From positions 213,739 through 277,738 of the forward strand of contig CALQZS010000001.1 in NCBI GenBank assembly GCA_943349945.1: a stretch of 64,000 nucleotides of DNA, given 5' to 3'. A model generated the notes under the pieces. That model was not told the DNA's origin. It made no database searches and saw only the letters and a list, made by a program, of their open reading frames with translations. Shown one piece after another: positions 5,137 to 45,318 of the stretch. The stretch comes from Candidatus Nomurabacteria bacterium. GTDB taxonomy: Bacteria > Patescibacteriota > Minisyncoccia > Phycocordibacterales > SBAW01. Positions within the stretch are counted from its first letter, which is position 1. The number at the start of each line of letters is the position of its first letter. Made by a program: the position numbers and the translations under genes.

Positions 5137-5180
5137 TCATTAGTATACCGCCTTGGCGGCACACCTTGCACGGGATAAAA

Positions 5181-7649
5181 CTACTGTTCGATATAACTTG
5201 GAAGCAAGTTCACCACTGCGCTTGCAGAGTTAGACCCGTAGGCATTGGTACAGGTGAGGGTGAAGGTAGTCTGCGCATCCAGGGGACCAGAGTCTACATC
5301 AGCGCCAGAGAGTGCCGTACTAGAGAATCCGTTTTGTCCGGTTACGGAACATGAGATTGCGTCGGTAGTAGACCAGTCGAGTTTGGTGGACGTATCTTTA
5401 CGCACACGCGTTGGGTCGGCACTAAGAGAAATAGTTGGCAAACATTGCGTGTCTGATGGTGCTGCGACACTACAGGAGCCGTTGCACATCACCGTACCAG
5501 AACTTGTTTGGCCACAGACGTTTGCGCCGGAAGTGCATGAGTTGCCGTAGGTGGCAGGCACAGGTGGCACCGTTGCCGAGCAATTGCAGCCCGAGTCGTA
5601 AGTACCAGTGGCATAGTTGCAGGCATTTGAAACACTACAAGCAGCTCCAACGGTGCAGGCTGCCGTCACATTCACATCGGTCCATCCACCACAGTTGTTT
5701 GCTTCGTTTGACTCGGCAATGACACCTACGGTGTCGCCGCTATAGGATTTGTCGGCACAGACGCGGATGCCGTAGGTGCCAGCTGCAGGGAAGGTGTAGG
5801 ACTGGGTAGCTATGCCACTACCCCACGCAGTCAAGGCAGACATGTTGGAAGCAGCTAGGTCGGTGATGACCTCTGCAGCGTGGGCGATGTTAAAGAGTTT
5901 GGTAAAGATGTTATGTGGAGCAGTGGCTGTGGTGTTGCTGCGTACTTGGTAGAAGTTTTGGAAGCCAATGTTGGTAGAGCCACCTCCTGTGTTGGTGACT
6001 GTGGCAGAGAAGGTGGTGGGGGTGCCTGCAACTGCACTAGTAGGGGTGATGCCCGAGACCGTGAGGTCTGGGGTACCTCCACAAGAAAAAACAGGTGTAT
6101 TACCAGAAACATTCCAGTTTACAGGGTCCCCGGGGTGCACCCACGCGCTATACAAAGCGTTTGGGGTGGTGGGTACAGTTATGGATGTGCCAGAGTAGTT
6201 GTCTATATAGCAAACACGGGGATCCGCACTCCATGACGTCCATCCGCTTGCGCAGCTCTCTGTAGTTGGTCTGTAGTAGCGTGGATAGAATTTGGTAGCA
6301 CCAGCTGGCGTTGACCATGAAAGGACTGCGGATGTTCCTCCAGCGTTACAAGAGGCGGTCATTGTAGGGGCTGTGAGTGCCGTACAAGAAAACGATGACA
6401 TGTTTGCTGTCCAATTTACTGTACCGCCTACATTAGTGTGCACCCAAGTAGAATAGGTAACACCAGGAGTGATGCCCGAAAGGTAAGCGTAGGTTTCTGC
6501 AATATTATCTTTGTAACAACCGTATTCCCAATGTGTCCACCCAGCAGGACACGAAGAAAGGTTAGCGCTTACTCGCGGATAATAGGTAGCGCCAGAGACA
6601 GGGCTCCATGAGAGCGTAACGCCAGTACCACTTCCATCACACGCCGCATACACTGATGGATTACCAGCTGCTGGCGGCGCACATGCGCCATCCCCTGCGC
6701 GCAAGTACTGGTACTGTACTGGGCTGGTGTTGCTGTACTGCCACCATTGCCAGTTGTTGCCGTTGGGGTCGCTGCCGCCAGTACAGTAAGGGGTCCAGGT
6801 TATTGCAACCGGAGCTGGTACAACGTAGTACGTACGCTGACTCAATGGTGTACCCCAACTTGCACCATCATATCCAGATACAGAGAATATATATTCTCCT
6901 ATTGGCAAGTTGTACACTAAATTACCATTAGAATCTGCGACAGGGCCGTGGATATTTGCCCCTCCTTGCCACCAAGAGGTACCCGCCGCTTGCACAACTG
7001 AATATTGGGCATTTTGTGTACTCCAGCTTACCGTCGCTTGGCAAGTAGTTGCACCCGGAGCAGCGACACAAGGGCTGCTTGGATAGACAGAGAGGTTCCC
7101 GCTTACTTGAGCGGCTGGTTGGTTTGCCGGCGGCGCACAACTGACCGCAGTAAAGGAGTATCGTTCGTATGTATAGCCAGAGTTATTGCCCAATACCCAA
7201 ATCTGGTACCCAGCACCTCCGGTGAGAAGGCTTGAAAAAGACGACGACCCCGAACAAGGTACGCTGGAACCGAGAGATTGTACGAAGTTGCCCCCACCGT
7301 CGTGCAAGTTTATCCGAAGGCTACTGTCGCCGTTACTTTCACAACTAGGTGAATGACCAGATGCCGCTGTTTCGTTCCAAGAAAAAGATAGGTTGTTGCG
7401 CCCAGACCCATCACAACTAGGCCCTAAACTACCAAAACATGCAGCAACCCCCTGCCCTAGGCCAATTTGCTCAGGAGCCAAACTCACCACAGAAGCACGT
7501 TCTGATACAAACGCACCTGCAAAAACTAAACAAAAGGCAACAGTAGCCCCCGCCGCCATAAACTGTGGCTTTTTTATCAAAACAGAGGGGCGTACTATTT
7601 GCAGGAAAACTTTTTTACTGCGCTGCAAATATGTATTAAATTTTGTCAT
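5181..7649 (-). CDS. Large secreted cell-surface protein with FN3-like and CARDB-like Ig-fold repeats; Cys/Trp/Gly/Ser/Thr-rich
   Basis: 822 aa; hydrophobic signal-like segment MAAGATVAFCLVFAGAFV (alternative start at 7559); motifs GVTLSWSPVSGATYYPR (FN3-like), DLTVSGITPTSAVAGTPTTFSATVTNTGGGST (CARDB-like); two tandem ~75-aa internal repeats (YYPRVSANLSSCPAGWTHWEYGCY... / KFYPRYYRPTTESCASGWTSWSADPRVCY...). Ends 4 nt from the upstream TPR gene. Confidence 0.6.
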   Translation of the reverse strand: MTKFNTYLQRSKKVFLQIVRPSVLIKKPQFMAAGATVAFCLVFAGAFVSERASVVSLAPEQIGLGQGVAACFGSLGPSCDGSGRNNLSFSWNETAASGHSPSCESNGDSSLRINLHDGGGNFVQSLGSSVPCSGSSSFSSLLTGGAGYQIWVLGNNSGYTYERYSFTAVSCAPPANQPAAQVSGNLSVYPSSPCVAAPGATTCQATVSWSTQNAQYSVVQAAGTSWWQGGANIHGPVADSNGNLVYNLPIGEYIFSVSGYDGASWGTPLSQRTYYVVPAPVAITWTPYCTGGSDPNGNNWQWWQYSNTSPVQYQYLRAGDGACAPPAAGNPSVYAACDGSGTGVTLSWSPVSGATYYPRVSANLSSCPAGWTHWEYGCYKDNIAETYAYLSGITPGVTYSTWVHTNVGGTVNWTANMSSFSCTALTAPTMTASCNAGGTSAVLSWSTPAGATKFYPRYYRPTTESCASGWTSWSADPRVCYIDNYSGTSITVPTTPNALYSAWVHPGDPVNWNVSGNTPVFSCGGTPDLTVSGITPTSAVAGTPTTFSATVTNTGGGSTNIGFQNFYQVRSNTTATAPHNIFTKLFNIAHAAEVITDLAASNMSALTAWGSGIATQSYTFPAAGTYGIRVCADKSYSGDTVGVIAESNEANNCGGWTDVNVTAACTVGAACSVSNACNYATGTYDSGCNCSATVPPVPATYGNSCTSGANVCGQTSSGTVMCNGSCSVAAPSDTQCLPTISLSADPTRVRKDTSTKLDWSTTDAISCSVTGQNGFSSTALSGADVDSGPLDAQTTFTLTCTNAYGSNSASAVVNLLPSYIEQ

Positions 7650-7652
7650 ATA

Positions 7653-8453
7653 CTACTTCTTTGCTTGAGCTAGAGATAAATTTGCCTCTATTGCAGCTTG
7701 GAAAGCTTTGATGCTTGCCTCTATCGAGGCTGGGTCGTTGCCCGAATATGCTCGGTGCCATTGTTTTGGGGTCACCTCGCGAGCCAACGCAAGAGCTTGT
7801 GTAAAAGAAGCTTCCGCGTCTACATAGTGTAACCTGTTTAATTGCGCCAACCCCAAAGAATTCCACAACCAGGGGATATCTTTTGCCTCCGGTACTTTTA
7901 TAAAAGCATCTTGGATAACAGCTTCTGATTCTGTGTACTTGCCCTCTTTGGCTAATACGAATGCCAAATCGTTGTATCCACCCCACTCTGCAGGCGCCCA
8001 AGCAACAAAATTTCTAAAATCCTCCTCCGCTGCAGACAGGTTGTTTAGACTTATATACGTAAGCCCGCGCACATATAGGGAGCGTGGGTTGTAGGGGAAC
8101 AAAATTAATTCTGCATTGATATGTGCGAGCGCTCTATCAAGCTGGCCGTCCACAAAATAGATACGCGCCAGCTGGTAGCGCACCAATTGCGTCGCCGGGT
8201 CCAGCTGCAGCGCCAGTTCATATGACGCGGCAGCTTTGCGCAAGTTGTATTCCCCACCGCCAAAGTAGTAGTTGCCTAGTTGCGCCGCCAACGCGGCATC
8301 TGAGTGATTGAGGTAGTACGCAGCCGTTGGTGAGTGAGTATATACAAAACTGGCCACAAACTTTTGAAACGAAGGCGGCGCAACCCACCAAACTACCACC
8401 AAAAGACATAGGGCAAACAAAAATAAGAAAGCGTATGTGCGGCGGCGCATCAC
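7653..8453 (-). CDS. Membrane-anchored TPR-repeat protein
   Basis: 266 aa; N-terminal TM (AFLFLFALCLLVVVWWVA); TPR-like repeats (YELALQLDP..., ARIYFVDGQLDRALAHINAEL...). The annotated start is GTG; an ATG follows 3 nt later. Confidence 0.65.
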   Translation of the reverse strand: MMRRRTYAFLFLFALCLLVVVWWVAPPSFQKFVASFVYTHSPTAAYYLNHSDAALAAQLGNYYFGGGEYNLRKAAASYELALQLDPATQLVRYQLARIYFVDGQLDRALAHINAELILFPYNPRSLYVRGLTYISLNNLSAAEEDFRNFVAWAPAEWGGYNDLAFVLAKEGKYTESEAVIQDAFIKVPEAKDIPWLWNSLGLAQLNRLHYVDAEASFTQALALAREVTPKQWHRAYSGNDPASIEASIKAFQAAIEANLSLAQAKK

Positions 8454-8550
8454 ACTACCTAGTGTACGCTATATATCAGCAACAAAAAGTGGAAAACTAC
8501 AAATGAGAAGACCCAACGCCGCGAGTGCAACGTTGGGTCTTGTGCCGGAA

Positions 8551-8841
8551 TCATCCGGACTTCGAGGACAGGCTCTGCGTAAGGACCTGCGCCAGGCCCT
8601 TGGCATAGTCTGCGGCGTTCGCCGCGTCGAGCCCCATGTTCTGGTCGGTGTACGACCCGACACGGAGCCCGTCGATGCGCGCCTGCTTCAGCGTGACTTC
8701 CGCCACCTTGGCGCGGTTGAGCGCCGCGTCGCAGACGAGGTCCTTCTGGCAGGCCGCCCGCTCGTCGAAGCTCAGCTCCTGGCCGAGTGCGGGGCCGGCA
8801 AGCGCGATCATGATTACAAAGAAACGTCCGATATTACGCAT
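8551..8841 (-). CDS. Small secreted protein (signal peptide) in a high-GC patch
   Basis: Start MRNIGRFFVIMIALAGPALG-QELS...; GGAGG RBS 5 nt upstream; high GC; a 174-aa ORF on the opposite strand (8437..8961) is judged a GC artefact. Confidence 0.5.
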   Translation of the reverse strand: MRNIGRFFVIMIALAGPALGQELSFDERAACQKDLVCDAALNRAKVAEVTLKQARIDGLRVGSYTDQNMGLDAANAADYAKGLAQVLTQSLSSKSG

Positions 8842-8896
8842 AACAACCTCCATTGGATGTTTCGGTGCGTCCCACCTTGGGCCACCAATACATACT

Positions 8897-8925
8897 ATCT
8901 TAGCATGTTAAGCAAATTTTGTCAA
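8897..8925 (-). promoter_or_regulatory. Sigma70-like promoter (TTGACA-17-TAAGAT) for the 8551..8841 gene
   Basis: Read on minus strand: ttgaca + 17 nt + taagat, ~50 nt upstream of the start codon. Confidence 0.4.
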
Positions 8926-9055
8926 GTATTTTGTAGCGACCCAACATCCAAGAGGTATTGACTTTTATATAATAAAAGTGTCAAGTAACCTTTAGTTGCA
9001 ACCCGTTCCTTCCCGCCTTGGGCGGCATAGGACCACATACCAGTCGAGGTATCCA

Positions 9056-9475
9056 ATGATTAAAGTGTTCTTGTTGGCGGCTCTCACTGCGCTATCCCCT
9101 TCCACACTTGTAGCGCAGTCAAAGGAAGTGCCGAAACAGTGTCGGGCGGCCTGGACAATCACAGACGACCCAAGCAAGCGGCACGAGCGCAACACTGGAG
9201 CAGGTCTTGTTGATCTGCTCCAGAAGCGATACTACTCCAAGCCAGGCATAGAGGCATTCCATAGCCCACCAGAAAGCGGCTCTGGGTACGTATACTCAGT
9301 CCCAATTGTCGTGGAAGATTTACCGAATGGAGGTAAGCAATTTACCTTCAATCGAAAGAACGACAATGCGTTTGTAATCGGCACCCTGCATCAAATTCCG
9401 GACGGCCGATGGGAAATGGCACTTTCAGTACAATTGCTAGGATACGTAACGGCAACTGGCCTTTGTATCGAGTAG
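9056..9475 (+). CDS. Small secreted protein (signal peptide)
   Basis: Start MIKVFLLAALTALSPSTLVAQ (ATG at 9056 within the longer 8996 ORF); no recognisable domain. Confidence 0.5.
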   Translation: MIKVFLLAALTALSPSTLVAQSKEVPKQCRAAWTITDDPSKRHERNTGAGLVDLLQKRYYSKPGIEAFHSPPESGSGYVYSVPIVVEDLPNGGKQFTFNRKNDNAFVIGTLHQIPDGRWEMALSVQLLGYVTATGLCIE

Positions 9476-9494
9476 CTCGCCCATGCGCACAAAA

Positions 9495-9521
9495 GCCCTG
9501 CAAATATGTTATTTGCAGGGC
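9495..9521 (+). terminator. Perfect 12-bp stem hairpin (gccctgcaaata-tgt-tatttgcagggc) after the 9056..9475 gene
   Basis: Inverted repeat read directly; the U-tract is weak. Confidence 0.4.
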
Positions 9522-9580
9522 TTCCACTATAAAAACTGTATAAATGCTTACACAAGTATATAGTTAATACAGTGAGGGGG

Positions 9581-9609
9581 TTGACTTTTACACAATAAAG
9601 GTATATAAT
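9581..9609 (+). promoter_or_regulatory. Consensus sigma70 promoter TTGACT-17-TATAAT
   Basis: ttgact (9581-9586), 17-nt spacer, tataat (9604-9609); AAGGAG RBS at 9666 precedes ATG 9679. Confidence 0.5.
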
Positions 9610-9678
9610 AAAGCCAGTTGTAACACGGCACATTTTCCCATTTGGGAAGGCGTGAGTAACATAGCAAGGAGAAAGTAC

Positions 9679-10152
9679 ATGCGTATTTTGTTCGCACTTA
9701 GCATGCTGTTGCTCCCGAGCCTCTCTTGGGCGCAGCAGTACACACCGATCCCCAAGGGGAAGCAGTGCTTTGCACTGCTCGGAGAAGAGCGCGCCCCGCC
9801 CGGAGTGGCGACAATGAGCCCATCCACCGTTCCTGGTCGAGGTTCCGTCTTGATGTCGTTTGAAGAAAACGGCACCGTTCGGCTCTACTTCAAGCGCTCG
9901 ATCGACCCGTACAATGCGGCATTAAGCGGAAAACCTTTCAATGAAGTCGCCCGGTCAATGATAGACCGGGGAAACCGTCCCATCACTCAGATGGACCGCT
10001 GGCTTTCATTCGACCACGGCACAGCGGATCCGAGCAACGAACAAACGTACCAGGTTACCATAGGGCCAGATGGTGGCCCTCTCGGGCGAGCGATTTCTCG
10101 CAACGGGCAATTCTCGGTAACCAAACCACTATGTCAGTCCAAGATCGGCTGA
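9679..10152 (+). CDS. Small secreted protein (signal peptide MRILFALSMLLLPSLSWAQ)
   Basis: ATG at 9679 with AAGGAGAAAG Shine-Dalgarno; consensus promoter upstream; no recognisable domain. Confidence 0.55.
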   Translation: MRILFALSMLLLPSLSWAQQYTPIPKGKQCFALLGEERAPPGVATMSPSTVPGRGSVLMSFEENGTVRLYFKRSIDPYNAALSGKPFNEVARSMIDRGNRPITQMDRWLSFDHGTADPSNEQTYQVTIGPDGGPLGRAISRNGQFSVTKPLCQSKIG

Positions 10153-10162
10153 ACATGGCACG

Positions 10163-10197
10163 AAATCGCCGGCGCACCCATGTGCGACCGGCGATTT
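10163..10197. terminator. Bidirectional hairpin terminator between convergent genes
   Basis: aaatcgccgg...ccggcgattt 10-bp stem followed by ttttttctt. Confidence 0.5.
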
Positions 10198-11476
10198 AAC
10201 TTTTTCTTACAAATAAATTTCTCCAGTTTTGTTTTTTATTTTCACCTAAACTTTCGTTTGGATACAGTATGTTTTTTAACACAGCCACCAACCTATCAAC
10301 ATCAGATCTTTCGTTATACACATAAAAACTAGCCCGACACACACCAGCAGTATCTATTGTTTTGACCAATGGCATAGCGCAATGATACCCTCCTCTACTG
10401 GAAATGTGCTGCTTGCCCAAGGCTTGAGTTACTTGCATCGACGTAACGTCCCTCACAACAAAAGACACTATACCGATATTTTTTTGCTCATTCTTTTCAG
10501 AAACAATTGTAATTTCTGGTATACGACTCAGAGACTCTGTGCAATATTGCACTAAATCTTGCACATGAGACGAAATAGACTCAATCCCTAAAGACTCTAT
10601 GTATTCTACGGCTGCGGCCAAGCCGATCGCCCCCGCAATATTTGGTGTACCCGCCTCAAAACACATAGGAGAATCTCGATATATCGTTTCTTCTGGCGAA
10701 ACACTCTTGATAGCTCCGCCACCACTAAAAATTGGCTGCAATTTAGCAAATATGTCTTTTTTGCCGTACAAACCTCCTATGCCTGTAGGACCGAGCATTT
10801 TGTGACCTGAAAAAAATAAAAAATCGCAGCCTAGTGTTTGTACATTCACGTCCACATGCCCTATCGCAGTAGTTGCATCAACTATAGTTACTGCACCACA
10901 CTCTTTTGCTTGTCGTATAATCCTCTGGACATCATATATTGTGCCCAAAACATTACTTGCCAAAGGTATGGCTACAATTTTGGTTTTTGAACTTATTAGA
11001 TTTTGTGCAACATCATAATCTAACTCTGTACCCTTCAGAGGAATGAGTTGCATCTTTGCTTTTGTCCGCTTAGCTAACTCTTGGAATGGAATAAAGTTTG
11101 AATGGTGTTCTGAAACACTAACAACAATGCCGTCGTGCGGTGTAAGATTTAAAAACTTTTCAAGCATCAGCACGAGCATGTTTAACCCCAAAGTAGCACC
11201 GGGAGTAAACACCATCTCCTTTGTCTCTGCATGAATAAACTTAGCCACCGTAGCACGTGCCTGTTCATAGGCATGTGTTGCCTCCACGCTGAGCGCATGC
11301 GGCCCACGGTGAACATTTGCTCGGTAGTTAAAGTAATAATCATTCATAGCCTCCACCACTTGCTGTGGGGTTTGCGACGATGCCGCAGAGTCCAAATACA
11401 CAAGACTTTGTCCATGTGTATCTTTATAGTTTTTAAAGATAGGGAAATCTTTTTTAATTGTTCCGACGTTTATCAT
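10196..11476 (-). CDS. Cysteine desulfurase, class V aminotransferase (SufS/NifS family)
   Basis: PLP-lysine motif SGHKMLGPTGIG; N-term MINVGTIKKDFPIF...LVYLDSAASSQTP aligns with SufS starts; the track ORF extends 12 codons further to a GTG at 11512. Confidence 0.8.
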   Translation of the reverse strand: MINVGTIKKDFPIFKNYKDTHGQSLVYLDSAASSQTPQQVVEAMNDYYFNYRANVHRGPHALSVEATHAYEQARATVAKFIHAETKEMVFTPGATLGLNMLVLMLEKFLNLTPHDGIVVSVSEHHSNFIPFQELAKRTKAKMQLIPLKGTELDYDVAQNLISSKTKIVAIPLASNVLGTIYDVQRIIRQAKECGAVTIVDATTAIGHVDVNVQTLGCDFLFFSGHKMLGPTGIGGLYGKKDIFAKLQPIFSGGGAIKSVSPEETIYRDSPMCFEAGTPNIAGAIGLAAAVEYIESLGIESISSHVQDLVQYCTESLSRIPEITIVSEKNEQKNIGIVSFVVRDVTSMQVTQALGKQHISSRGGYHCAMPLVKTIDTAGVCRASFYVYNERSDVDRLVAVLKNILYPNESLGENKKQNWRNLFVRKS

Positions 11477-11589
11477 AAAATGCCTGCAATGGTCACAGTG
11501 TACACTAGCCATTTCTTAATCACACAGGGCACGGACCGTGATATGTTTTAGATTTGTAGAACTGCTTTATATATCCTAAACTTATCTCT

Positions 11590-13023
11590 ATGGGCCGTGT
11601 TTTTGAATATCTTCAAGTGGTATTGTTCAAAAAAACTCTTTCACGGTACGCAAAACTACTTCCAAAAGATTTTTTCACAACTACCACTACTAAAAAAACT
11701 GAATTATATAAAAATTTACTACGTGCAGAAATAGAAACAATTAAACAACTCCAAAAAGAAGAGTTTGAATTTGTCAAAAAAATACAACTTCTTCGCTTAA
11801 GAGAAGTGCTTGTGTTAGCCGCACAGACAAGGTGGTGGAACAATTACTTTCTGCAAAAGAAAGTTGCTTGGAAACGTATTGCTACTTTTGATGACTTACA
11901 AACTATCCCACCTATCACCCGCAACAATATTGTGGATGTAGAAAAAAAGGACCTTCTACTACTAGAGGCTAACGACCCCTCATTACTGTGGCGCAGCTCC
12001 AGCGGCAGTACGACAGGCACCCCTGTCGTGTGGGGTTTAAATAAAACAATTCTAATCTTAAACGTATTAGCAAGTTTATTAATACAACTCGAAAAAAGAG
12101 GTTTTTTACTTAGCGCAAATCTGAATCATAAATTTTGCCTCCACTACAATATGTTTATGACAGCCGACAAGCATGCTTTTAAATGGTTTGCTCAACCGGA
12201 CTTCCATATCCCCAACCACAGCAGTGACCGTCGTAAAAAAACTATAGAGCTAAGTTTAATTATTGCTCAAACGCAAAATCTAGTCCTTTTTACCAGTCCT
12301 AACGAATTAATTTCCCTGGTAGACTCTTTTAGAGATATTGGCGATCGACCCCATATACCTTTTATTATTACAGTTGGCTCTCCGCTACCTCCACACGTTC
12401 GTGACACCACAACGCAGTACTTCCACTCTCAAATATTTTCTTTCTACGGCGCACAAGAAACAGGACCCTGTGCAATAGAGTGCGTAAACGTTAAGGACGC
12501 CTATCATGCATTATCAGACCGAATAATTTTAGAGCTCCTTGATGAACACAATCGGCCCGTAAAAGAAGGCGAAGCGGGATTAATTACCGTAACCTGTCTG
12601 GACAACACCGTTATGCCACTTATCCGATACCAACCAGGTGACTGGGGAGTGTTCGTTTCTAACTCTCTGTGCACATGCGGCAATCACTTTCCTTTATTTA
12701 AAGTACTGGAGCGCACCACCGACGTGGTTACTTTTAGCACCGGAGAGCGTCTGTCTATAGTCCCAATTTTAAGATTTTTTAACAGACCTCCTTATATTTC
12801 TTTTGTGAGGCGCTTTCAGATCGAACAAGATCGACACGATCACATCATTGTGAGACTTGAAGTTAAAAAACTATTATCTGAAACCGCCATAACTAGACTT
12901 CACGAAAGAGTTGGGCGTATTTTTAAAGGCAAACTTCAGGCAGATGTTGTGCAAACCACAAACCTTACGCAAGAAAACCCAAAATTTAGAGTATTTATAC
13001 CCTTAAAAACACCGCGACCTTAA
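11590..13023 (+). CDS. PaaK/CapK-like adenylate-forming enzyme (phenylacetate-CoA ligase superfamily)
   Basis: 477 aa; AMP-binding P-loop-like SSGSTTGTPV; strongly AT-rich compared with flanks. Confidence 0.5.
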   Translation: MGRVFEYLQVVLFKKTLSRYAKLLPKDFFTTTTTKKTELYKNLLRAEIETIKQLQKEEFEFVKKIQLLRLREVLVLAAQTRWWNNYFLQKKVAWKRIATFDDLQTIPPITRNNIVDVEKKDLLLLEANDPSLLWRSSSGSTTGTPVVWGLNKTILILNVLASLLIQLEKRGFLLSANLNHKFCLHYNMFMTADKHAFKWFAQPDFHIPNHSSDRRKKTIELSLIIAQTQNLVLFTSPNELISLVDSFRDIGDRPHIPFIITVGSPLPPHVRDTTTQYFHSQIFSFYGAQETGPCAIECVNVKDAYHALSDRIILELLDEHNRPVKEGEAGLITVTCLDNTVMPLIRYQPGDWGVFVSNSLCTCGNHFPLFKVLERTTDVVTFSTGERLSIVPILRFFNRPPYISFVRRFQIEQDRHDHIIVRLEVKKLLSETAITRLHERVGRIFKGKLQADVVQTTNLTQENPKFRVFIPLKTPRP

Positions 13024-14090
13024 TTTACGACTATCCCAAGTTTATCTAAAAAAACTCTAAACTCTGGGGAAATTTTAGCCAGCTTGATTGCTACCATTTT
13101 ATTGAAATTAGTATCAGGAACGTTCTTTAGGTTTGCAAAAAAACGCAACTCCTCTGACAAAGGATCAGCATCTGCAAAAGGCTGGAGAATAGCACGTATA
13201 TCCTCTTCTCTATTCAATTGAGATGAAACAAGATTTGCATTATAAAAACGAGCGCGCCAAATAATTATAGATGGGTTTTTATCTTGTCCTGTCGCTTTAG
13301 CAGTATCAAAAACCAGAGCATAGGCATCTTCTGCCTCTTTTACTGATTCTGCGGGTGATCCGAGCAAGAAAGAAATACGACCCAACGATACAGCTCTGTG
13401 GTAATATCCATGGACAAGAATTGATGGTGAATAAATCGACTCATCGTGGCGAGAATCCCCATCTTTCACATATTTCATCATCATCTCTGCGGTTTCTTTC
13501 GGATCCGCAGCAGTGGGATTACTTACACTTAAAGATGCGTACTGATGCGCAATTGAATATTCTGCCCACGACGTTGGGTATGTATCGTCTGAGTATTTAA
13601 GCAACGCAAGGTATGCAGCGCTGACTTTTTGCGCCTCGGTACCTTCTGCTGGCACAAAGGCATTATATGGAGCTTCGCTAAAGTGAATTTGGTAGAAGGA
13701 TAGACTCGAGTCGTTTACAAAACGGGCAATACTGTTGAGCGCCTGGGCGCGCCACGCAGCAGGTATTGAGTAGTCGTTCACTACTTCTTTTAAGGTTTTG
13801 ATTGCTTGGGTGCGGTCACCGCTTTGGTTTCTAAACCAATAACTCACCCCAAGTAGGATTTTGAGCCGTCCAAATTCTGATTTATTTGGCGCCTGAGCAA
13901 TAAGGGTCGGCAGGTTATTAATGGAAGCCGCATAGTCTCCCGACACAAACGTATCGTACGCAGCCCTAGCATCAGCTTGATATGTGTTGCTTTGTTGAGG
14001 CATGTAAAATCGCATGTAGTATATATACCCGAAAACAACAGCCCCTGAAAGTATTAAGGCGAGCAGTAGTAGAGTGTAACGTTTTCCCAT
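13020..14090 (-). CDS. Membrane-anchored hypothetical protein (AT-rich gene)
   Basis: Start MGKRYTLLLLALILSGAVVFGYIYYM (ATG at 14090 inside the longer track ORF); a single N-terminal TM followed by a large soluble domain. Confidence 0.5.
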   Translation of the reverse strand: MGKRYTLLLLALILSGAVVFGYIYYMRFYMPQQSNTYQADARAAYDTFVSGDYAASINNLPTLIAQAPNKSEFGRLKILLGVSYWFRNQSGDRTQAIKTLKEVVNDYSIPAAWRAQALNSIARFVNDSSLSFYQIHFSEAPYNAFVPAEGTEAQKVSAAYLALLKYSDDTYPTSWAEYSIAHQYASLSVSNPTAADPKETAEMMMKYVKDGDSRHDESIYSPSILVHGYYHRAVSLGRISFLLGSPAESVKEAEDAYALVFDTAKATGQDKNPSIIIWRARFYNANLVSSQLNREEDIRAILQPFADADPLSEELRFFANLKNVPDTNFNKMVAIKLAKISPEFRVFLDKLGIVVN

Positions 14091-14103
14091 AAATATTATC
14101 AGG

Positions 14104-14373
14104 TTAACAAGGACTTTCGCTATCACCAGCACCTTCTGGAGAATCTGATTCACACGCATCACCTTCACCCCCGCCAGCACCAACACCTTCAGCTGATGTG
14201 TTTGTACTGGGGAAGTCTGCATGAGCTGTATTGAGCCCAAAATCTTTTGCCAGTTTTTCCTGTTCTTGTGGGTCAGACTGTGTAAACCTCGCAACCAATC
14301 CACCAAAAAAGACAAGTGCTGTAAGCGCACTGAGTGAAACAAATCGGAGTGATAGTTGTAGTAGGCTTCTCAT
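14104..14373 (-). CDS. Small secreted acidic protein (hypothetical)
   Basis: 89 aa; N-terminal hydrophobic segment, acidic Gly/Glu/Asp-rich C-terminus; 13 nt upstream of the next gene. Confidence 0.35.
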   Translation of the reverse strand: MRSLLQLSLRFVSLSALTALVFFGGLVARFTQSDPQEQEKLAKDFGLNTAHADFPSTNTSAEGVGAGGGEGDACESDSPEGAGDSESPC

Positions 14374-14426
14374 ATATTGTTTAGTGTAGCAGGCTGGCTA
14401 CTATTGAACACCCAACTATCCCCACC

Positions 14427-14912
14427 TTAGTCTTGTGCCGGAATGCGCTCTGTATCCCCCACCACTGGAAGCCCCGCATCTGCCCAGTGGTTTAGCCCAC
14501 CCTCGATACGCAGCAGGTTTTGGAATCCTTCTCGCTCTAAGTAGCCGTAGGCAACCCCGGCCAGGCGCCCCGTCGAGCAAATAAGTACTATTTTTTTGCC
14601 CTTTTTAGGCAATACGGTACGGTCGTCAAATAAGTTTGCTATAGGTTCGCTTATAGAGCCCTGCGCATGGGCAATATCATACTCTCTTTTGCTCCGCACA
14701 TCCAACAGCAAGTATGCATCAGGGTTTTTTTGATAGTCCTCCCAAAAAGCAACAGGGTCGACATCGTGCATTGTTGGCTCAACAAAGTTCATCCACTTAA
14801 GTGGGGTTAGGTAAATAACCGACGCCGCCCCCACCCCGCCCACCAATAGTCCAATAATTAGAAAAAGTGCTGCAGACCAGGTAAAAAGTGTTCGACGTAT
14901 CCACGTAAGCAT
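14427..14912 (-). CDS. Membrane-anchored rhodanese-domain sulfurtransferase
   Basis: 161 aa; N-terminal TM; catalytic loop CSTGRLAG (Cys-x2-Gly-x-Arg); lies 28 nt downstream of ycaO. Confidence 0.75.
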   Translation of the reverse strand: MLTWIRRTLFTWSAALFLIIGLLVGGVGAASVIYLTPLKWMNFVEPTMHDVDPVAFWEDYQKNPDAYLLLDVRSKREYDIAHAQGSISEPIANLFDDRTVLPKKGKKIVLICSTGRLAGVAYGYLEREGFQNLLRIEGGLNHWADAGLPVVGDTERIPAQD

Positions 14913-14940
14913 ACGAAAATTGTATCACGGACAAAAACTT

Positions 14941-16323
14941 TTATGGGAAAGGGTGCGGGTACGTGTTTGTTGGTTCCACCCCACCAAGCACCGGGGTCGA
15001 GAAGCGTTCGTGGAGTGCGAGTTTGTACAACCCTGGTGCAAGTAAGCGCACAGAGTGGAAGCCTACCTCGTCTAGGTACGGCTGCTTTGCTTGCACCACG
15101 CACAGCTGCCCCTTTGCCAAAACCTTAAGCACATCCACTGGATGGTTTGCCTTCTTTTTTAGCAAATCATCAAACAACACTTCCCTGCCTGCCAAAAAGA
15201 GCTCGCCATTTTTTGCTATATGCGCTTGAGACCATGCGTGTATACGCTTAACGTCTGTGATAGAGCGATCACAAAAACCAGCGGTGAGTGTTGTTTCACT
15301 CAATACAGGTGCTTGTGTGTTGTTAGCACCATCCATCGCCCAGGTATATACAGACAAGGCTTCGCACACTGCACGCTCCACAGCCCCGCAGTAGTCCACT
15401 TTTGTGGCCATACCCACAAACCAGCCCAACCCCGGCTTGGTAAGCACTGCAGCAACCGACGGCGTACCGTCTACTAATGTACAGTCCAGCAAGTGAGCAG
15501 TGAAGTCGTATGCAGACACTGCGCGCAATAGTGTTTTTGTGCCCTGCTGTGCCAGCGGGCTTTGCAACACGCTATGCAATGCAATTTTTGGTGGAGCTTT
15601 TTTTGCATACCAATGGGTAAAAAAGCTGTGTCGCTGCAACAGCTCTGACGCACCGCTGAGTACAGCCTCGCCGTATGTATATCCAGCACCAAGGCCATTG
15701 GTATTCATCTCGCCTAGCAATGGCTCGCCCTTTTGTCGCTTGTACCCCCAGTGCAAAAGTTGTGCTGGCACCCACGTAGGCGCCTGTGTAAAAATGTTTG
15801 TTGCTTGCACCCATCCAAAAACAGAGTCCTCGTCCCACACCAAATCAGTAAAGGTCTCTTTCTGCTTCTTGGTTGTTTGTGCCAGCTCAAAGATAGGAAA
15901 CACAGACTCTTTTTGCTCCTGTAATTTTTTGTAGCTTGCATGCACCACCTGTTGCCCAACAGGCACAAACCGCATAGACACGCGTTCGTACAGCTCGCCA
16001 AATGCCCTGGCAACTGCCTCGTCTAAAGACAAGGCTGTCCCTCGTGCAAACACTCGCCCATCTATTGCCCGCAAACCCACATCATAAAAATGCACATTCG
16101 GGGCCAGCTGGAGCGCCCGCGAATAGCCAACTGTTTGGTGTAGAATATTCTGCCTCTGTGCTTGTGCTATCAATTTTTTGTGCGTGTCGGTTGTAGCTAT
16201 GTTCCCCTGTGCCGTAACGCCCGAGAATAGGTGTGTGTCCCGCACCGCGGATACATACTGCGCAAATAACCCACCGGGGGTTTTAAAACGTGTATGAAAT
16301 TCGAGCAACTCGCGGATGTTCAT
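14941..16323 (-). CDS. YcaO-domain protein (ATP-dependent peptide backbone-modifying enzyme family)
   Basis: YcaO ATP-binding motifs ALSLDEAVARAFGELYERVS and NTNGLGAGYTYGEAVLSGASELLQRH; C-terminal PxPxP (PHPFP). The ATG at 16323 overlaps the upstream gene's TGA stop as ATGA (translational coupling); the track start at 16356 is GTG. Confidence 0.8.
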   Translation of the reverse strand: MNIRELLEFHTRFKTPGGLFAQYVSAVRDTHLFSGVTAQGNIATTDTHKKLIAQAQRQNILHQTVGYSRALQLAPNVHFYDVGLRAIDGRVFARGTALSLDEAVARAFGELYERVSMRFVPVGQQVVHASYKKLQEQKESVFPIFELAQTTKKQKETFTDLVWDEDSVFGWVQATNIFTQAPTWVPAQLLHWGYKRQKGEPLLGEMNTNGLGAGYTYGEAVLSGASELLQRHSFFTHWYAKKAPPKIALHSVLQSPLAQQGTKTLLRAVSAYDFTAHLLDCTLVDGTPSVAAVLTKPGLGWFVGMATKVDYCGAVERAVCEALSVYTWAMDGANNTQAPVLSETTLTAGFCDRSITDVKRIHAWSQAHIAKNGELFLAGREVLFDDLLKKKANHPVDVLKVLAKGQLCVVQAKQPYLDEVGFHSVRLLAPGLYKLALHERFSTPVLGGVEPTNTYPHPFP

Positions 16324-17195
16324 ACGTTTTTTTGTTTGTCGGCCAATAAGTAGCACAGCCCCACCAGCACATGCATATGCACGTCGTCTATATATAGTGT
16401 GTTTGGTTGCGAAAGAATGTGCTCGTGGTACTTCCCCAGCGTCTGTTTTGCGTAGTGGCTTGTGGCCCGCTCGTGCAACAGCCGTGTGTAAAGCCGCTCG
16501 ACCAACGCAGCATCGGCCGCATAGTAGGCCAGCACTTCAAACACCTTGCCCACAGGAGACGACCACGCACGAACCCCCGTGTGTAGGTCTTTAAACCAGC
16601 CGTCGGCAGTGTAGCAACTTTCTAAATATTGATACTCCTGTTGAGCCAGCTCTGGTGCCGCACTTTTTGCCCAGACCAGAGTGTCTGCATAATCAAAAAA
16701 ACGACCCTGCCTTGGCGCCAAGCAAAGATTGTACCGCAGCACCTCTTGTAAGTATGTAGTGTGCGGCAGAGGTTTGGGCAGCAGCCCCGAAAGTCGCAAA
16801 TACAAACCCACGGCAATGGGATGCGACAACATATCGGGCACAAGAGCTTGGTGCACTAGTGCAATAGACACCTCTTTTTTTGCATATGCCTCTGCGAGCG
16901 CCGTATACAGCATGATGTAGAGTTTTTGAATGGGAGTTTGCGACTCAAGATTGTCTTGCACATACCGCTCTGACAAGTTTATCTGCTTTTGTATATCCAG
17001 CGTTGGGACAAGTTGTTGCGCAAACATGAGCGCCATGTTTGCCATAGACTGTCGCACAATATCTTTCTTTCTGTCTATAGAATCGGAGACTGTTATGTAG
17101 GAAGGGATCATCCCTTCTGCGTCTTGGGTTAGGAGAATTTTTTCGACATGCCACGCAATACGTGCCTCCAGAGAGTCTCCCGTAACATCTTCCAT
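16320..17195 (-). CDS. Hypothetical protein translationally coupled to ycaO (candidate YcaO partner)
   Basis: 291 aa, largely helical-looking; no recognisable motifs; its stop overlaps the ycaO start. Confidence 0.55.
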   Translation of the reverse strand: MEDVTGDSLEARIAWHVEKILLTQDAEGMIPSYITVSDSIDRKKDIVRQSMANMALMFAQQLVPTLDIQKQINLSERYVQDNLESQTPIQKLYIMLYTALAEAYAKKEVSIALVHQALVPDMLSHPIAVGLYLRLSGLLPKPLPHTTYLQEVLRYNLCLAPRQGRFFDYADTLVWAKSAAPELAQQEYQYLESCYTADGWFKDLHTGVRAWSSPVGKVFEVLAYYAADAALVERLYTRLLHERATSHYAKQTLGKYHEHILSQPNTLYIDDVHMHVLVGLCYLLADKQKNV

Positions 17196-17220
17196 GGCCT
17201 GATTATACTCAATGGTGCAG

Positions 17221-17249
17221 ATTGACTTATGTATATATAGGTGGTATAA
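17221..17249 (+). promoter_or_regulatory. Consensus sigma70 promoter TTGACT-17-TATAAT
   Basis: ttgact (17221-26), 17-nt spacer, tataat (17244-49); AGGAGG RBS precedes ATG 17281. Confidence 0.55.
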
Positions 17250-17280
17250 TTAAAAAAGAGTACAACAGGAGGACTTTTCC

Positions 17281-17706
17281 ATGAACGTTCTGCAAATTGC
17301 CGCCCTGGCACTGCTTGCTTTGGCAGGATGTGCCACAGACAAGCCAACAAGCGCCGTCGCCGACCCCACCAAACTGGTCGCGGGGAAGCGGTTCACCGGC
17401 AACACCACCCCCGACGTGCGCTGCGTGGGCACCGGATGTTATGGGGGCATCGAATTCAACTTCGACGCCACGGATGTCTCCATACGATTTTTGGGAGACA
17501 AAACCATCGAGCCGGGCAGCCTACTGCTGGCGCGCGGAGCCGTCCATCGAGGAGTCTCCAGCTTTGCCATCGAGGGCGGCGAGATCGAATTCTCGGATGC
17601 ATCGAACCGCAAGTACAAGCTGTGGCACGACGGCACCTGTCTAACCGGCAGTGCACACACGATCACGAACCTACACTCAAGCGTCCGGGCATGCCCGGTG
17701 CGTTAA
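17281..17706 (+). CDS. Lipoprotein (lipobox LALAGC) in a high-GC cassette
   Basis: 141 aa; signal peptide plus LAGC lipobox; the gene is bracketed by a consensus promoter and a strong terminator; overlapping ORFs on both strands indicate high GC. Confidence 0.6.
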   Translation: MNVLQIAALALLALAGCATDKPTSAVADPTKLVAGKRFTGNTTPDVRCVGTGCYGGIEFNFDATDVSIRFLGDKTIEPGSLLLARGAVHRGVSSFAIEGGEIEFSDASNRKYKLWHDGTCLTGSAHTITNLHSSVRACPVR

Positions 17707-17722
17707 GTCCACCCCAAACACC

Positions 17723-17770
17723 AAGGCGATGCTGGAAATCTTCCACCAGCATCGCCTTTCTATTTTTCTA
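17723..17770 (+). terminator. Rho-independent terminator (13-bp stem aaggcgatgctgg/ccagcatcgcctt + T-run)
   Basis: Read directly; followed by tctatttttct. Confidence 0.55.
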
Positions 17771-17950
17771 TATACAGAGAGAATGGTTGTTTTATGCATC
17801 CATTGACTTCTGCCCACAAAAGGGATATTCTGTGCACATCTGGTAACTGCCCCGAGTGGGTGGTTTTTTTCGTTCTAGAGATATACAGAACGCCAGTGAC
17901 TATATATCTCAGACCCTGTTAAATCCCACTACTCATTAAGAATTTATATT

Positions 17951-28550: not shown

Positions 28551-28739
28551 CTATTGAGCAGTTGTGCGTTTGGTGTGCACAGGTTCGACGTTGTGTATGC
28601 CGGTAATAGTGTGTATTGCCGGGCAACCACTACAATCCCCCACCGAGCAATTTCTGCAGTTTTCTCCACGCGTCATTTGTATTGCAAGCAATGGATCATC
28701 TGGATCGCCCCGAAGGACGCCTGGAGCAGATTTGCTCAT
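28551..28739 (-). CDS. Possible small Cys-motif protein (CRNC...CSGC)
   Basis: 62 aa; GGGAGA-like RBS upstream; no homology recognisable; low confidence. Confidence 0.2.
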   Translation of the reverse strand: MSKSAPGVLRGDPDDPLLAIQMTRGENCRNCSVGDCSGCPAIHTITGIHNVEPVHTKRTTAQ

Positions 28740-28887
28740 ATTATTTTCTCCCTACAAGGTACGAGTCATCCGGAGAACTGTATAAAAAAGCCTTTTGCTT
28801 GTCAAACGCAGAAAATAAAAAAGGACGAGCTGTGGAAATTCACAGACCCGCCCAAAATTGACCTTGCCCAAATTAATTATCGGACTT

Positions 28888-29076: not shown

Positions 29077-29082
29077 CATTTC

Positions 29083-30101: not shown

Positions 30102-30143
30102 TGTTTACTCCTTTTGCGTACAGAACGACTCATCCAAAAACAA

Positions 30144-39463: not shown

Positions 39464-39485
39464 ACTTGAGAAAATATAGATAAAA

Positions 39486-39518
39486 AAATCCGCCGGATCC
39501 CATGTGGGTCCGGCGGAT
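39486..39518. terminator. Bidirectional hairpin terminator (aatccgccggatccca/tgggtccggcggatt)
   Basis: ~15-bp stem between convergent genes. Confidence 0.5.
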
Positions 39519-39520
39519 TG

Positions 39521-40504
39521 TTAGGCGAAGGCGCGTCGCACTCGTCGTGCAACATACCAACCTAACAAAAAAATCACGAAAAGGGCGAGAGAATACGCTA
39601 CGAAGGGCGGGATGCCCGCGGCATGCAGCACCGTGTTTGCAGCGCTCGCCACCATTTGCGGCTGTGTCACCAAAAGGTACACACCGCCAACAAATAGGCC
39701 GAACTTTACCACAGGTGCGATAACATGCGGTGCAACAAGCGCCGCAAAACTACCCACGCCGTGCGCCGCTGTGGCGACCTTAGCAGACAACCCCACCTTG
39801 GCCACCGTTGCTGTCTTAGCTGCCAAGGCAGCCTTGCCTGCAAGCCCGAGCGTGCCTATGGCGATGACATCAAGCGTCGCCATGCCTGCTTCGCGAAGTG
39901 TTGGTTTTTCTCCGCGCACCAGACGCGATTCGACCACCTGGAGCCCGCTAGTCAGCATCCGTTTGGCGAATGCAGCCACCGAGCTACCAGGGAGCCTGCG
40001 AGCCACACCTGCTTCGTCGATGTCGTACTGTCCAAAGAAGTCATTCTTGGCCAGCAACATCAACTCAATGGCATATGACCCACACTCAAACGGGGTCAGC
40101 GCCTCAGGCTTGGCTGGCATTTCTGCCCGAACGAGCGTTTTCGCTGCCAACGAAAACGCATAACTCGCGTCAAGGTAGCCGTCGCCCTCCGTCAGACACT
40201 TCCAGATGATTGGTACCATCTGGTTGTGCCCAAACTGCCGCAGTGCACGCTGGAACCTTTCGTTGGTCCCATACGCAGCAAAAACAGCAGGCGACATGCT
40301 TGGGTATTGCTCCAGCGCAGCCTCAGCTTGAGTGCCCAGGCCAACATGGCGCATCTCTGCACGTACGACCGCCTCTTCGTAGGAGGTTCGGTCACCGAGC
40401 AGCGCCAACGCAGCACCCAGCAGTACGGCAAGTACTGCTAAAGTGACGAACGGGAAACGCCACCGCTTCTGCTTCGCCAAGGTGAAATTGATTTCCCTTG
40501 CCAT
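39521..40504 (-). CDS. Hypothetical membrane protein (high-GC gene)
   Basis: 327 aa; N-terminal and C-terminal TM segments; many overlapping ORFs on both strands indicate high GC. Confidence 0.45.
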   Translation of the reverse strand: MAREINFTLAKQKRWRFPFVTLAVLAVLLGAALALLGDRTSYEEAVVRAEMRHVGLGTQAEAALEQYPSMSPAVFAAYGTNERFQRALRQFGHNQMVPIIWKCLTEGDGYLDASYAFSLAAKTLVRAEMPAKPEALTPFECGSYAIELMLLAKNDFFGQYDIDEAGVARRLPGSSVAAFAKRMLTSGLQVVESRLVRGEKPTLREAGMATLDVIAIGTLGLAGKAALAAKTATVAKVGLSAKVATAAHGVGSFAALVAPHVIAPVVKFGLFVGGVYLLVTQPQMVASAANTVLHAAGIPPFVAYSLALFVIFLLGWYVARRVRRAFA

Positions 40505-40630
40505 TTCAAAGTCCTTTTTCAGTCCTATTTTAATTATACTATATTATAATATATACGTCAAGTAGTGCTCAGCGGGCTAAAGTGCCTTACAGTTACAGGG
40601 TTATTTATCTACTTATTTGGAAGCTAGGCT

Positions 40631-44443: not shown

Positions 44444-44516
44444 CTACACATTCATATAAAAACTATCCCCGCCATTTGTGGTGGCGAGGATAAGAAGAAT
44501 TTAACGGTAGATATTT

Positions 44517-45260
44517 TTACTGTAGGGACTTAAACCTGCTGGCCTCGTCGTTACTTGTCCAATACGTTGCCCCTGCGGCCAGCGGCATCGATCGCGCCTT
44601 GGCAACTTCGGCAGCATAGAGTCCGTTCGCTGCGGCGCGGCTCTTGCACGTATACACTTGCCGACCCGAAAGGACGAGGACTGGTGGCGCCAGGTCTTCA
44701 GGCCCGCTTCGCTCGACTCTGACACCTCGCCGGTCGTAGTATGTGCCAACAAGTATATTCCAGCTTCCTTGAGCATCCACGCTAGCTAGCCAAGGGCCGC
44801 CTCGAGCGACAACGCCTACCTGCACACGATGACCTTCGGAGAAGGGGTGCGGATGGTCCTTCACCGTCGCGGTTAGTACCGGGTCGAGACGACACGAAGC
44901 GACCATGACTTTGATGCGAGGAGTCGCAGCCGGGCGCGGCGCTGTGACAGCATGGAGCTTCAGCCAATCTTCGGCAGCGGCAAGGCTGTCACACCTCACG
45001 CCGTCGCCTTGCAGATTGATAGCTGTACCTTCGGCTGGGATAGAGTTGCCGAAAGCAATTACCCAGTAGGTGGGGCCTTGATATATGACGGCCGATCTGG
45101 GTTGACTGTCAACCTTGGCCAGATATATCCGACCCTGGGGAACTTCCCCCTGCACCTTGATGATATCGGTCGAGGCAACGCAGGTATCCGCCGCCATCGC
45201 CGGGGCGACGAAAGCAGTCAGCAACACGGCCAAACAGATGGCCATAAACCTTCGGCACAT
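44517..45260 (-). CDS. Secreted hypothetical protein (high-GC gene)
   Basis: Signal peptide MCRRFMAICLAVLLTAFVAPAMA; high-GC patch with overlapping ORFs on both strands. Confidence 0.45.
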   Translation of the reverse strand: MCRRFMAICLAVLLTAFVAPAMAADTCVASTDIIKVQGEVPQGRIYLAKVDSQPRSAVIYQGPTYWVIAFGNSIPAEGTAINLQGDGVRCDSLAAAEDWLKLHAVTAPRPAATPRIKVMVASCRLDPVLTATVKDHPHPFSEGHRVQVGVVARGGPWLASVDAQGSWNILVGTYYDRRGVRVERSGPEDLAPPVLVLSGRQVYTCKSRAAANGLYAAEVAKARSMPLAAGATYWTSNDEASRFKSLQ

Positions 45261-45318
45261 GAGTCTTTCCTCCAAGCACGGGAACGTGCTAATTGTTATT
45301 AAACATTAAATACAAAGG

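Follow-up and report, generated by a model that had tools for sequence, protein, structure and literature searches.

What do locally GC-rich patches stand for in a bacterial genome of intermediate base composition: genes that came from elsewhere, native genes whose proteins are rich in residues with GC-rich codons, or mere compositional fluctuation? The question is raised by a stretch of 64,000 nucleotides (nt) from a Candidatus Nomurabacteria bacterium (assembly GCA_943349945.1, contig CALQZS010000001.1, positions 213,739 to 277,738 of the forward strand), hereafter the window, in which an initial annotation had pointed to four GC-rich patches, and had seen in them a piecemeal horizontal acquisition from a high-GC donor. 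The patches lie at 8437-8961 (56.8% GC), 17280-17710 (60.6%), 39500-40500 (57.8%) and 44500-45300 (57.7%), and the real genes that they hold (at 8.5, 17.3, 39.5-40.5 and 44.5-45.3 kb) are designated P1 to P4, respectively. These patches are probably monocistronic promoter-to-terminator cassettes encoding orphan envelope proteins, lodged in intergenic slots of a housekeeping gene order that is conserved in the Parcubacteria group. A higher-GC donor is plausible for P1 and P2 only, and the searches named none. The components of the four cassettes, together with one spurious open reading frame (ORF), are as follows (aa, amino acids; a slash marks the cleavage site of a signal peptide).

8897..8925, minus strand: P1 promoter-like site TTGACA-17-TAAGAT with TG upstream, 10/12 consensus matches
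8847..8851, minus strand: P1 Shine-Dalgarno sequence GGAGG, with a spacing of 5 nt to the ATG at 8841, as read from the sequence
8551..8841, minus strand: P1 coding sequence, 96 aa with a signal peptide of the general secretion (Sec) pathway, ATG at 8841 and stop at 8551
8508..8541, minus strand: P1 intrinsic terminator, with a perfect stem of 11 bp (15 pairs in the scan), then a T-rich tail
8437..8961, plus strand: shadow ORF of 174 aa, antisense to P1, not a gene
17222..17250, plus strand: P2 promoter-like site TTGACT-17-TATAAT with TG upstream, 11/12 consensus matches
17267-17272, plus strand: P2 ribosome-binding site AGGAGG
17281..17706, plus strand: P2 coding sequence, 141-aa lipoprotein, lipobox LAG/C
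17716..17765, plus strand: P2 terminator hairpin, then a T-rich tail
40533..40561, minus strand: P3 promoter-like site TTGACG-17-TATAAT, 11/12 consensus matches
39521..40504, minus strand: P3 coding sequence, membrane protein of 327 aa with a signal-anchor helix at the N-terminus and transmembrane segments at the C-terminus
39484..39522, minus strand: P3 terminator, a 17-nt stem, then a T run
45298..45325, minus strand: P4 promoter-like site TTGACA-16-TTTAAT, kept in the relatives L018 and L019, coordinates counted by hand from the alignment
45275-45290, minus strand: hairpin in the 5' untranslated region of P4, followed by a GGAGGA ribosome-binding site
44517..45260, minus strand: P4 coding sequence, 247-aa secreted protein, signal peptide AFVAPAMA/AD
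44463..44493, minus strand: P4 terminator, conserved in L018 and L019

The 17.3 kb unit, described in the initial annotation as self-contained, does hold a promoter, AGGAGG, a lipoprotein gene and a terminator, and the same is true of the other three patches. Overlapping ORFs fill both strands in 4/4 patches, as had been noted, and the view that each real gene encodes an exported or membrane protein is borne out by reading the translated sequences, with signal peptides in P1 and P4, a lipobox in P2, and an anchor and transmembrane segments in P3. The signal peptide of P1, MRNIGRFFVIMIALAGPALG/QE, is of the Sec type, and its n-region and h-region (MRNIGR-FFVIMIALAGPALG/QE), like the signal peptide of P4 (MCRR-FMAICLAVLLTAFVAPAMA/AD), have the traits of Sec/signal peptidase I substrates, namely a positive n-region, a hydrophobic h-region and an AxA-like site. 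Mature P1 has about 75 aa with two Cys, and public gene calls contain its 96-aa form from the ATG at 8841, not a 100-aa form. P2 is a lipoprotein by its lipobox LLALAG/C (residues 11-17), which is kept in the relative L017 despite divergence of the mature part.

The ORF that had marked the first patch, at 8437-8961 on the plus strand, was rejected as a gene and is an antisense shadow of P1: its product is Arg-rich and without family match, the first position of its codons falls on the third position of those of P1 on the minus strand, and the substitutions that separate the window from L017 track the minus-strand frame rather than that of the shadow ORF. P1 itself is a protein-coding gene under purifying selection. 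Against L017, its ratio of non-synonymous to synonymous divergence (dN/dS) is 0.23 overall, the last 60 codons hold 8 synonymous changes and 1 non-synonymous, and 11/15 differences in the mature part fall at third positions (p=0.002). Since the substitutions are biased both to synonymous changes and to third positions, the patch is a translated gene and not an RNA element. At 8/15 of the third-position differences, the lower-GC L017 has AT where the window has GC. The proportion of synonymous differences (pS) is 0.198 in P1 versus 0.339 in its neighbours (p=0.016), to which the codon bias of P1 could contribute. The locus is identical (>=99.98%, <=1 mismatch) across 16 contigs from ENA, Logan and NCBI assemblies, and is syntenic in the diverged L017, where it is about 88% identical at the DNA level; because of this identity in independent assemblies and synteny in a diverged relative, it is not an assembly artefact.

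How did these genes come to stand where they are? The surrounding gene order was compared with loci fetched from 80 relatives for each of two backbones, one set around PNPase and one around nusA (160 in total). The rpsO-NYN-PNPase-g404-DksA-ComM block is kept in 50-70 of the 80 PNPase loci, none of which contains a match to P3 or P4. The gap from NYN to PNPase has a median of 166 nt (72 relatives) versus 1168 nt in the window, and DksA is followed by ComM at about 0 nt in 46/53 relatives versus 876 nt in the window. Around nusA, the order HIT-pgk-tpi-GspE / nusA-PPase-tig is conserved in relatives, and the space between the GspE-like gene and nusA measures 133-138 nt in the nearest of them (L101/L102, NusA 82-85% identical) versus 12.8 kb in the window; neither P1 and P2 nor the eight genes between them have a match in the 80 relatives fetched around nusA. 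In addition, blastn of the four cassettes against the 160 loci gave no match. The distribution is therefore patchy, P1-P4 being absent at their sites in 80 relatives each while the flanks are conserved and adjacent, and it supports the reading of all four genes as insertions into a conserved gene order.

P1 and P2 belong to a larger accessory region, whose two main features are the following.

5137..17950, no strand assigned: lineage-specific mosaic island of 12.8 kb between the GspE-like ATPase gene and nusA
10196..14159, no strand assigned: low-GC segment with a class V aminotransferase, a PaaK-like adenylate-forming ligase and a 379-aa unknown protein, GC 0.40-0.43

The genes of the island run in the order CARDB/fn3 surface protein, TPR protein, P1, two signal-peptide ORFans, the low-GC trio, rhodanese-YcaO-291aa, and P2. 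Because P1, P2 and the genes between them are absent from the 80 relatives, P1 and P2 bound the variable part of the island, one at either end; the CARDB/fn3 and TPR proteins have only weak partial matches, in 4 and 1 of the 80 loci. Gene GC in the island spans 0.40-0.65, and this run from 40% to 65% points to a mosaic of several origins. The genes of the segment at 10196-14159, which adjoins P1, have a GC content at third codon positions (GC3) of 0.35-0.38 (z -2.6 to -3.1), the strongest anomaly of opposite sign, so the acquired DNA is a mosaic and not specifically high-GC. The region at 10196-17195, absent from the 80 relatives, brings a cysteine-desulfurase-like class V aminotransferase, a PaaK/F390-synthetase-like ligase and the 379-aa protein next to the rhodanese-YcaO-291aa operon, and the combination of a sulfur-mobilising enzyme with rhodanese and YcaO suggests a thioamide/azoline-type peptide-modification or a sulfur-relay pathway. 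At the GspE-proximal end, 5181-7649 on the minus strand encodes a surface protein of 822 aa that is rich in Ser, Thr and Gly and matches CARDB and, weakly, fn3; its dinucleotide signature is the most atypical measured (delta* 0.178, reached by 0/2000 native segments; observed/expected CpG 0.76 versus 1.06).

Near-consensus promoters are concentrated on accessory genes of this kind. Sites with 11/12 matches to the sigma-70 consensus number four in the 64 kb, versus 0.54±0.71 expected from a first-order Markov model (0/200 simulations reach four), and all four stand directly upstream of genes for lineage-specific envelope proteins, namely g157 (promoter at 9581-9609), P2, g189 (promoter at 21787-21760) and P3. 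Further lineage-specific exported or membrane orphans lie at 9056-9475 (plus strand), 9679-10152 (plus strand) and 21167-21736 (minus strand); g139 and g157 have signal peptides, and g189 has several transmembrane segments. As the GC content of g139, g157 and g189 is ordinary (0.51-0.565), GC-richness is not general to such cassettes.

Is the GC-richness of P1 to P4 nevertheless a sign of foreign origin? A native codon reference was drawn from 34 conserved or Pfam-supported genes of the window, with a GC3 of 0.545±0.063 and a maximum of 0.632 (n=34), and the null distribution consisted of 5000 length-matched in-frame segments of native genes. The four genes compare with it as follows.

P1: GC3 0.845 (z +4.8), reached by 0/5000 null segments (null maximum 0.76); third positions hold 74% of the GC excess
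P2: GC3 0.711, reached by 0.5% of the null (about the 99.5th percentile); third positions hold 62% of the GC excess
P3: GC3 0.613, normal, reached by 21-23% of the null; third positions hold 36% of the GC excess
P4: GC3 0.613, normal, reached by 21-23% of the null; third positions hold 29% of the GC excess

The third-position GC of P1 is far beyond the native range, and past the signal peptide its GC3 is 0.90-0.97. Such a GC3, of about 0.9, is what one would expect from a donor with a genomic GC of about 65-70%. The GC excess of P3 and P4 is mostly a matter of amino-acid composition, since Ala, Gly, Arg and Pro make up 36% of their residues versus 28% in native proteins. Synonymous-codon likelihood is low in both (P3 z -2.2, P4 z -3.3). 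Uniform GC3 and codon usage, which the initial annotation had named as the outcome that would speak against transfer, were found for part of the genes only: P1 and more weakly P2 are atypical, and the GC3 of P3 and P4 is normal. The proposal of piecemeal acquisition from a high-GC donor consequently divides, the piecemeal insertion being upheld by synteny and the high-GC source by the composition of P1 and, more weakly, of P2, while for P3 and P4 such a donor is not supported, in view of a GC3 that is not anomalous, of a GC excess that is largely amino-acid composition, and of the flank-like evolution of P3. A caution follows for surveys by eye: visible GC-richness had picked out two true compositional outliers together with two genes whose GC is mainly driven by amino acids. 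P1, and less clearly P2, may represent a fairly recent arrival from a much higher-GC source, now partly ameliorated; P3 and P4 would be older gains, or would come from donors of similar composition.

Comparison of close lineages adds a dynamic dimension. The window (W) is set here beside lineage A (L019) and lineage B (L180-182, about 86.5-90% DNA identity to W), as well as L017, which has P1 and P2 at the same sites. The one homologue of P2 is the syntenic copy in L017, with 52% aa identity in the mature part and saturated synonymous divergence (dS); the bounds of the divergence are sharp, at about 17324 and about 17724, and the flanks are 87-99% identical. The mature part (17324-17723) has 50-59% DNA identity to L017, and the signal peptide, promoter and terminator 89-98%, a pattern that looks like an allele replacement, or like long-maintained divergent alleles of a surface lipoprotein.

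P4 has two homologues, P0019 (74%, syntenic, in lineage A) and P0020 (63%, in L018, another genome in which the context is different). Lineage B lacks P4 and has, between DksA and ComM, 154 nt that cannot be aligned with the window (142 nt between called genes), although B is closer to W than A is (ComM pS 0.355 for W-B versus 0.54 for W-A). Between W and A, the pS of P4 is 0.339, below that of the flanking ComM at 0.54 (Fisher p=1e-5). In L018, a JGI metagenome contig, DNA homology runs from just upstream of the -35 box to the T-run of the terminator, and since this homology is delimited by the cassette in an unrelated context, the whole expression cassette appears to be the relocating unit. 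P4 thus seems to have been exchanged among related lineages. At 6200-7388 of L018, two ORFs situated 250-1800 nt upstream of the P4 cassette have a GC3 of 0.34-0.45, and core genes there 0.66-0.78; with such low-GC ORFs adjoining it, the L018 cassette also lies in a compositionally mosaic accessory region. On the other side of the P4 promoter in the window, the mechanical ORF of comM begins at 45319, but the alignment with all relatives sets in only at Met23 (MQYARTWG), and the true start is probably 45385, about 60 nt from the divergent P4 promoter; a TACAAT-type promoter-like site is found at 45349-45377.

Several results weigh against reading these cassettes as transferred, and the first of them concerns homologues. 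Against a collection of 5.8 billion protein clusters, P1 found its own cluster and one relative only (88% by BLASTP, 91% in alignment), and a HMMER search of 1.84 billion representative proteins returned its own cluster and an artefact. The latter, P0017, was rejected as a homologue of P1: it is a 1048-aa Fn3-like repeat protein in which ten copies of 'VTLSAGRYDGLRVQLY' sum to a spurious score. P2 matched only itself in the protein-collection search and nothing in the metagenome scan, and P4 had two relatives only in the protein collection and nothing in the genome-contig scan. For P3, narrower searches (the two large protein collections were not searched) gave neither a family or PDB match, nor a viral relative, nor a match in the loci of the 160 relatives. 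Viral scans with P1-P4 and plasmid protein and DNA searches with P1 gave nothing, and nothing significant came from comparing P1-P4 with Pfam, NCBIfam, PHROGs and PDB sequences, or their alternative frames with Pfam. BLASTP hits in high-GC organisms, which would have accorded with the proposed donor, were not found, and the hits are confined to close relatives, an outcome that the initial annotation had itself counted against transfer. Neither a donor homologue nor a conflicting gene tree was found, with P4 as a partial exception (its L018 context, its low W-A pS, its absence from B). Since homologues outside close relatives were not found, transfer is deduced from composition and presence/absence, and not from a donor or a tree. 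There is also a tension in P1 looking barely ameliorated and yet having no detectable homologue, as a sampled donor should be recognisable.

The age and the surroundings of the genes point the same way. P1 predates the split between the window and L017 (flank dS 0.2-0.7), so that 'recent' is a relative term. P3 is found at the same site in lineage B, with 91.7% aa identity, a dS of 0.47 and a dN/dS of 0.10, like its flanks; native-like in both GC3 and dN/dS, it appears to be old and well integrated. In dinucleotide signature, none of P1-P4 is significantly different from the backbone, in a comparison of low power on short sequences. Next to the cassettes there is neither an integrase or transposase nor an attC-like site or target-site duplication, in searches that included no dedicated one for attC, and the only recombinase in the window is a Xer-like gene conserved in 48 relatives. 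Structure models are too poor to suggest a function: the AlphaFold2 model of P1 is helical and of low confidence, with a predicted local distance difference test score (pLDDT) of 49, and the AlphaFold model of P4 also has a pLDDT of 49. Direct or inverted repeats flanking the cassettes are limited to the terminators, apart from an 11-nt AT-rich inverted pair at 39477-39487 and 40601-40611 (TAGATAAAAAA and TTATTTATCTA, one mismatch) that brackets the P3 cassette; it is the sole flanking repeat seen around any cassette and is probably due to chance. The orphan genes of the window show no paralogy among themselves.

Could the four genes simply be native, that is, fast-evolving or de novo orphans that occupy variable intergenic slots and owe their GC to amino-acid composition and local effects? 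Several observations fit: the GC3 of P3 and P4 is ordinary and codon positions 1 and 2 account for 64-71% of their GC excess, the evolution of P3 resembles that of its flanks, none of the four has a homologue beyond close relatives, and the slots hold unrelated genes in other relatives, as generic variable spots would. Such an origin would nonetheless leave unexplained a GC3 of 0.90-0.97 in mature P1, when highly expressed native genes do not exceed 0.63, and it accords poorly with P4, whose cassette turns up in another genome in a different setting, is missing from the closest relative of the window, has a synonymous divergence below that of its flank, and makes an atypical choice of synonymous codons (z -3.3). 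A native origin of all four is thus possible, if rather unlikely.

An ordinary compositional fluctuation, with the clutter of ORFs that GC-rich DNA brings, is improbable. The mean GC of the window is 50.7% (standard deviation 5.4% at 300 bp), which agrees with the background of about 50% given by the initial annotation, although this is a simplification as the initial 5 kb have about 57% GC. GC-richness was found at all four places that had been indicated, but it is not exceptional: at 300 bp, the window has 15 separate segments with >=60% GC, several of them within housekeeping genes. The largest lies within the gene of the GspE-like ATPase (3701-5175, 60.9% over 1.5 kb), and others within nusA, tig, the RNase Y gene and comM. 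The four patches are locally GC-rich, yet unexceptional as windows, P3 and P4 fall within the GC3 null, and the flagged ORF is itself a shadow, all of which would suit mere fluctuation. It is refuted for P1 and P2 by codon usage, P1 standing above all native segments and P2 at the 99.5th percentile, and for all four by the exact coincidence of the patches with lineage-specific insertions.

Much less probable still is an Actinobacterial host as the donor, which the initial annotation had put forward on the supposition of an episymbiont of Actinobacteria. Such a lifestyle is that of Saccharibacteria (TM7), which are known to live on Actinobacteria, and the one point in favour of this donor is the codon usage of P1 (GC3 of about 0.9), for which a genome with about 65-70% GC would be a fitting source. 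The best PNPase matches among GTDB species genomes (71-67%) are metagenome-assembled genomes (MAGs) named Patescibacteria, Nomurabacteria, Adlerbacteria (which belong to the Parcubacteria group) and Minisyncoccia, and the gene order around PNPase and nusA is common to dozens of Parcubacteria-type MAGs, including Kaiser-, Taylor- and Zambryskibacteria. From these matches and this gene order, the genome appears to be that of an ultra-small, Parcubacteria/Paceibacteria-like member of the candidate phyla radiation (CPR) rather than one of Saccharibacteria. Many MAGs deposited as Third Party Annotation under the title 'uncultured Candidatus Saccharibacteria bacterium' (among L020-L099) interleave with Nomura-, Adler-, Kaiser- and Taylorbacteria in PNPase identity and gene order; their label looks like a generic placeholder for Patescibacteria rather than taxonomy. 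The Actinobacterial host is therefore unsupported as a donor, given the identity of the nearest named relatives, which are Parcubacteria-group MAGs, and the want of an Actinobacterial or any other outside match in the 1.84- and 5.8-billion protein collections or in plasmids; among aquifer Patescibacteria, 1 of about 130 inferred donor events came from Actinomycetota (PMC12455944).

That the 8.5 kb patch should be a structured non-coding RNA, or a chimera assembled from a high-GC organism, is barely conceivable, for although GC-rich islets are often RNA genes and MAG contigs can be chimeric, the patch has no Rfam match at E<=1 (four tRNAs alone pass the gathering threshold in the window) and its substitutions are codon-periodic, and independent assemblies from many samples give one and the same sequence for the locus, which is also syntenic in a diverged lineage.

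Taking the patches as inserted cassettes for orphan envelope proteins, what mechanism might move them? Tentatively, this group of Parcubacteria may exchange complete orphan-envelope cassettes, each with a near-consensus sigma-70 promoter, a Shine-Dalgarno sequence, one ORF and a terminator, which would enter intergenic slots of the backbone without a dedicated recombinase, perhaps by natural transformation and recombination, and more recently than the divergence of the backbone; the outcome would be a plug-and-play surface proteome, to which P1 would be a recent addition from an unsampled high-GC source. This fuller proposal is uncertain, and on the whole rather unlikely. On the broader and more probable reading of the patches as inserted cassettes, the moving unit would be the whole expression cassette, as seen directly for P4, and the products would reach the surface through Sec for P1 and P4, the lipoprotein pathway for P2 and membrane insertion for P3.

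Other parts of the window also stand out. A 205-aa ORF after clpP (22505-23122, plus strand), without family match, is a low-side outlier with a GC of 0.377 and a GC3 of 0.31. About 1.8 kb at 28554-30300 lack a confident gene and hold ORFs with poor codon scores at 28554-29159 (plus strand) and 29586-30101 (minus strand); a GC-rich patch beyond the four initially reported lies at 29551-29975, and the region has no credible Rfam match at E<=1. Finally, 52925-62155 holds a cluster of genes for large membrane proteins without annotation (497, 294, 777 and 938 aa), after which comes a PrgI-family protein; the arrangement hints at a machinery for type IV secretion, or a conjugation-like one, of a kind common in CPR genomes.

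To what extent do these cassettes resemble systems already described? In the amelioration model of Lawrence and Ochman, horizontally acquired genes are reportedly atypical in composition and partly ameliorated, and P1, and more weakly P2, share with this model a third-position GC that departs strongly from that of the resident genome; they differ in having no donor homologue as an anchor, and P3 and P4 show no GC3 deviation. Integron cassettes are likewise small single-gene mobile units that build up in a genome and often encode orphan proteins, but they are promoterless, end in attC, and need the IntI integrase and an attI array. Each cassette of the window brings its own promoter and terminator, and the cassettes are dispersed over distinct intergenic slots rather than arrayed, and IntI is not present in the window. 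With the hypervariable surface-protein loci and flexible islands of free-living and symbiotic bacteria they have in common lineage-specific envelope proteins at fixed hot spots; they differ from them in that the window shows no repeat-mediated switching, silent copies or paralogues.

Within Patescibacteria, genomic islands and horizontal gene transfer are documented, with 83% of detected events within the phylum (PMC12455944), and islands and single-gene transfers are common, the donor often being unrecovered (Gios et al., mSystems 2025, PMC12455944). The mosaic island of 12.8 kb and the P4 cassette shared with another genome resemble the islands of Gios et al., from which the present units differ as single orphan envelope genes, each equipped with a near-consensus promoter and a terminator, and with no donor-recipient pair. 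The approach differs as well, the earlier work having used MetaCHIP and IslandViewer, and the present one the synteny of empty versus occupied sites. As accessory islands and within-phylum exchange had already been documented in Patescibacteria, the finding is unsurprising in kind; its only mildly unusual aspects are the architecture of the cassettes and the way in which near-consensus promoters cluster on accessory genes.

On the prevailing view, CPR/Patescibacteria rely on contact with other cells, and orphan genes make up much of their surface proteome. The cassettes would build up a variable surface repertoire, plausibly for contact with hosts or phages, and the hypervariability of P2 and the presence/absence of P4 invite the speculation that they take part in interactions with hosts or phages. 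Lineages with 85-90% identity allow empty sites to be set against occupied ones, and P1, P2, P4, g157 and g189 emerge as candidate surface factors that differ between close relatives. The locus shows, at base-pair resolution, the entry of orphan genes into a streamlined genome as self-sufficient units.

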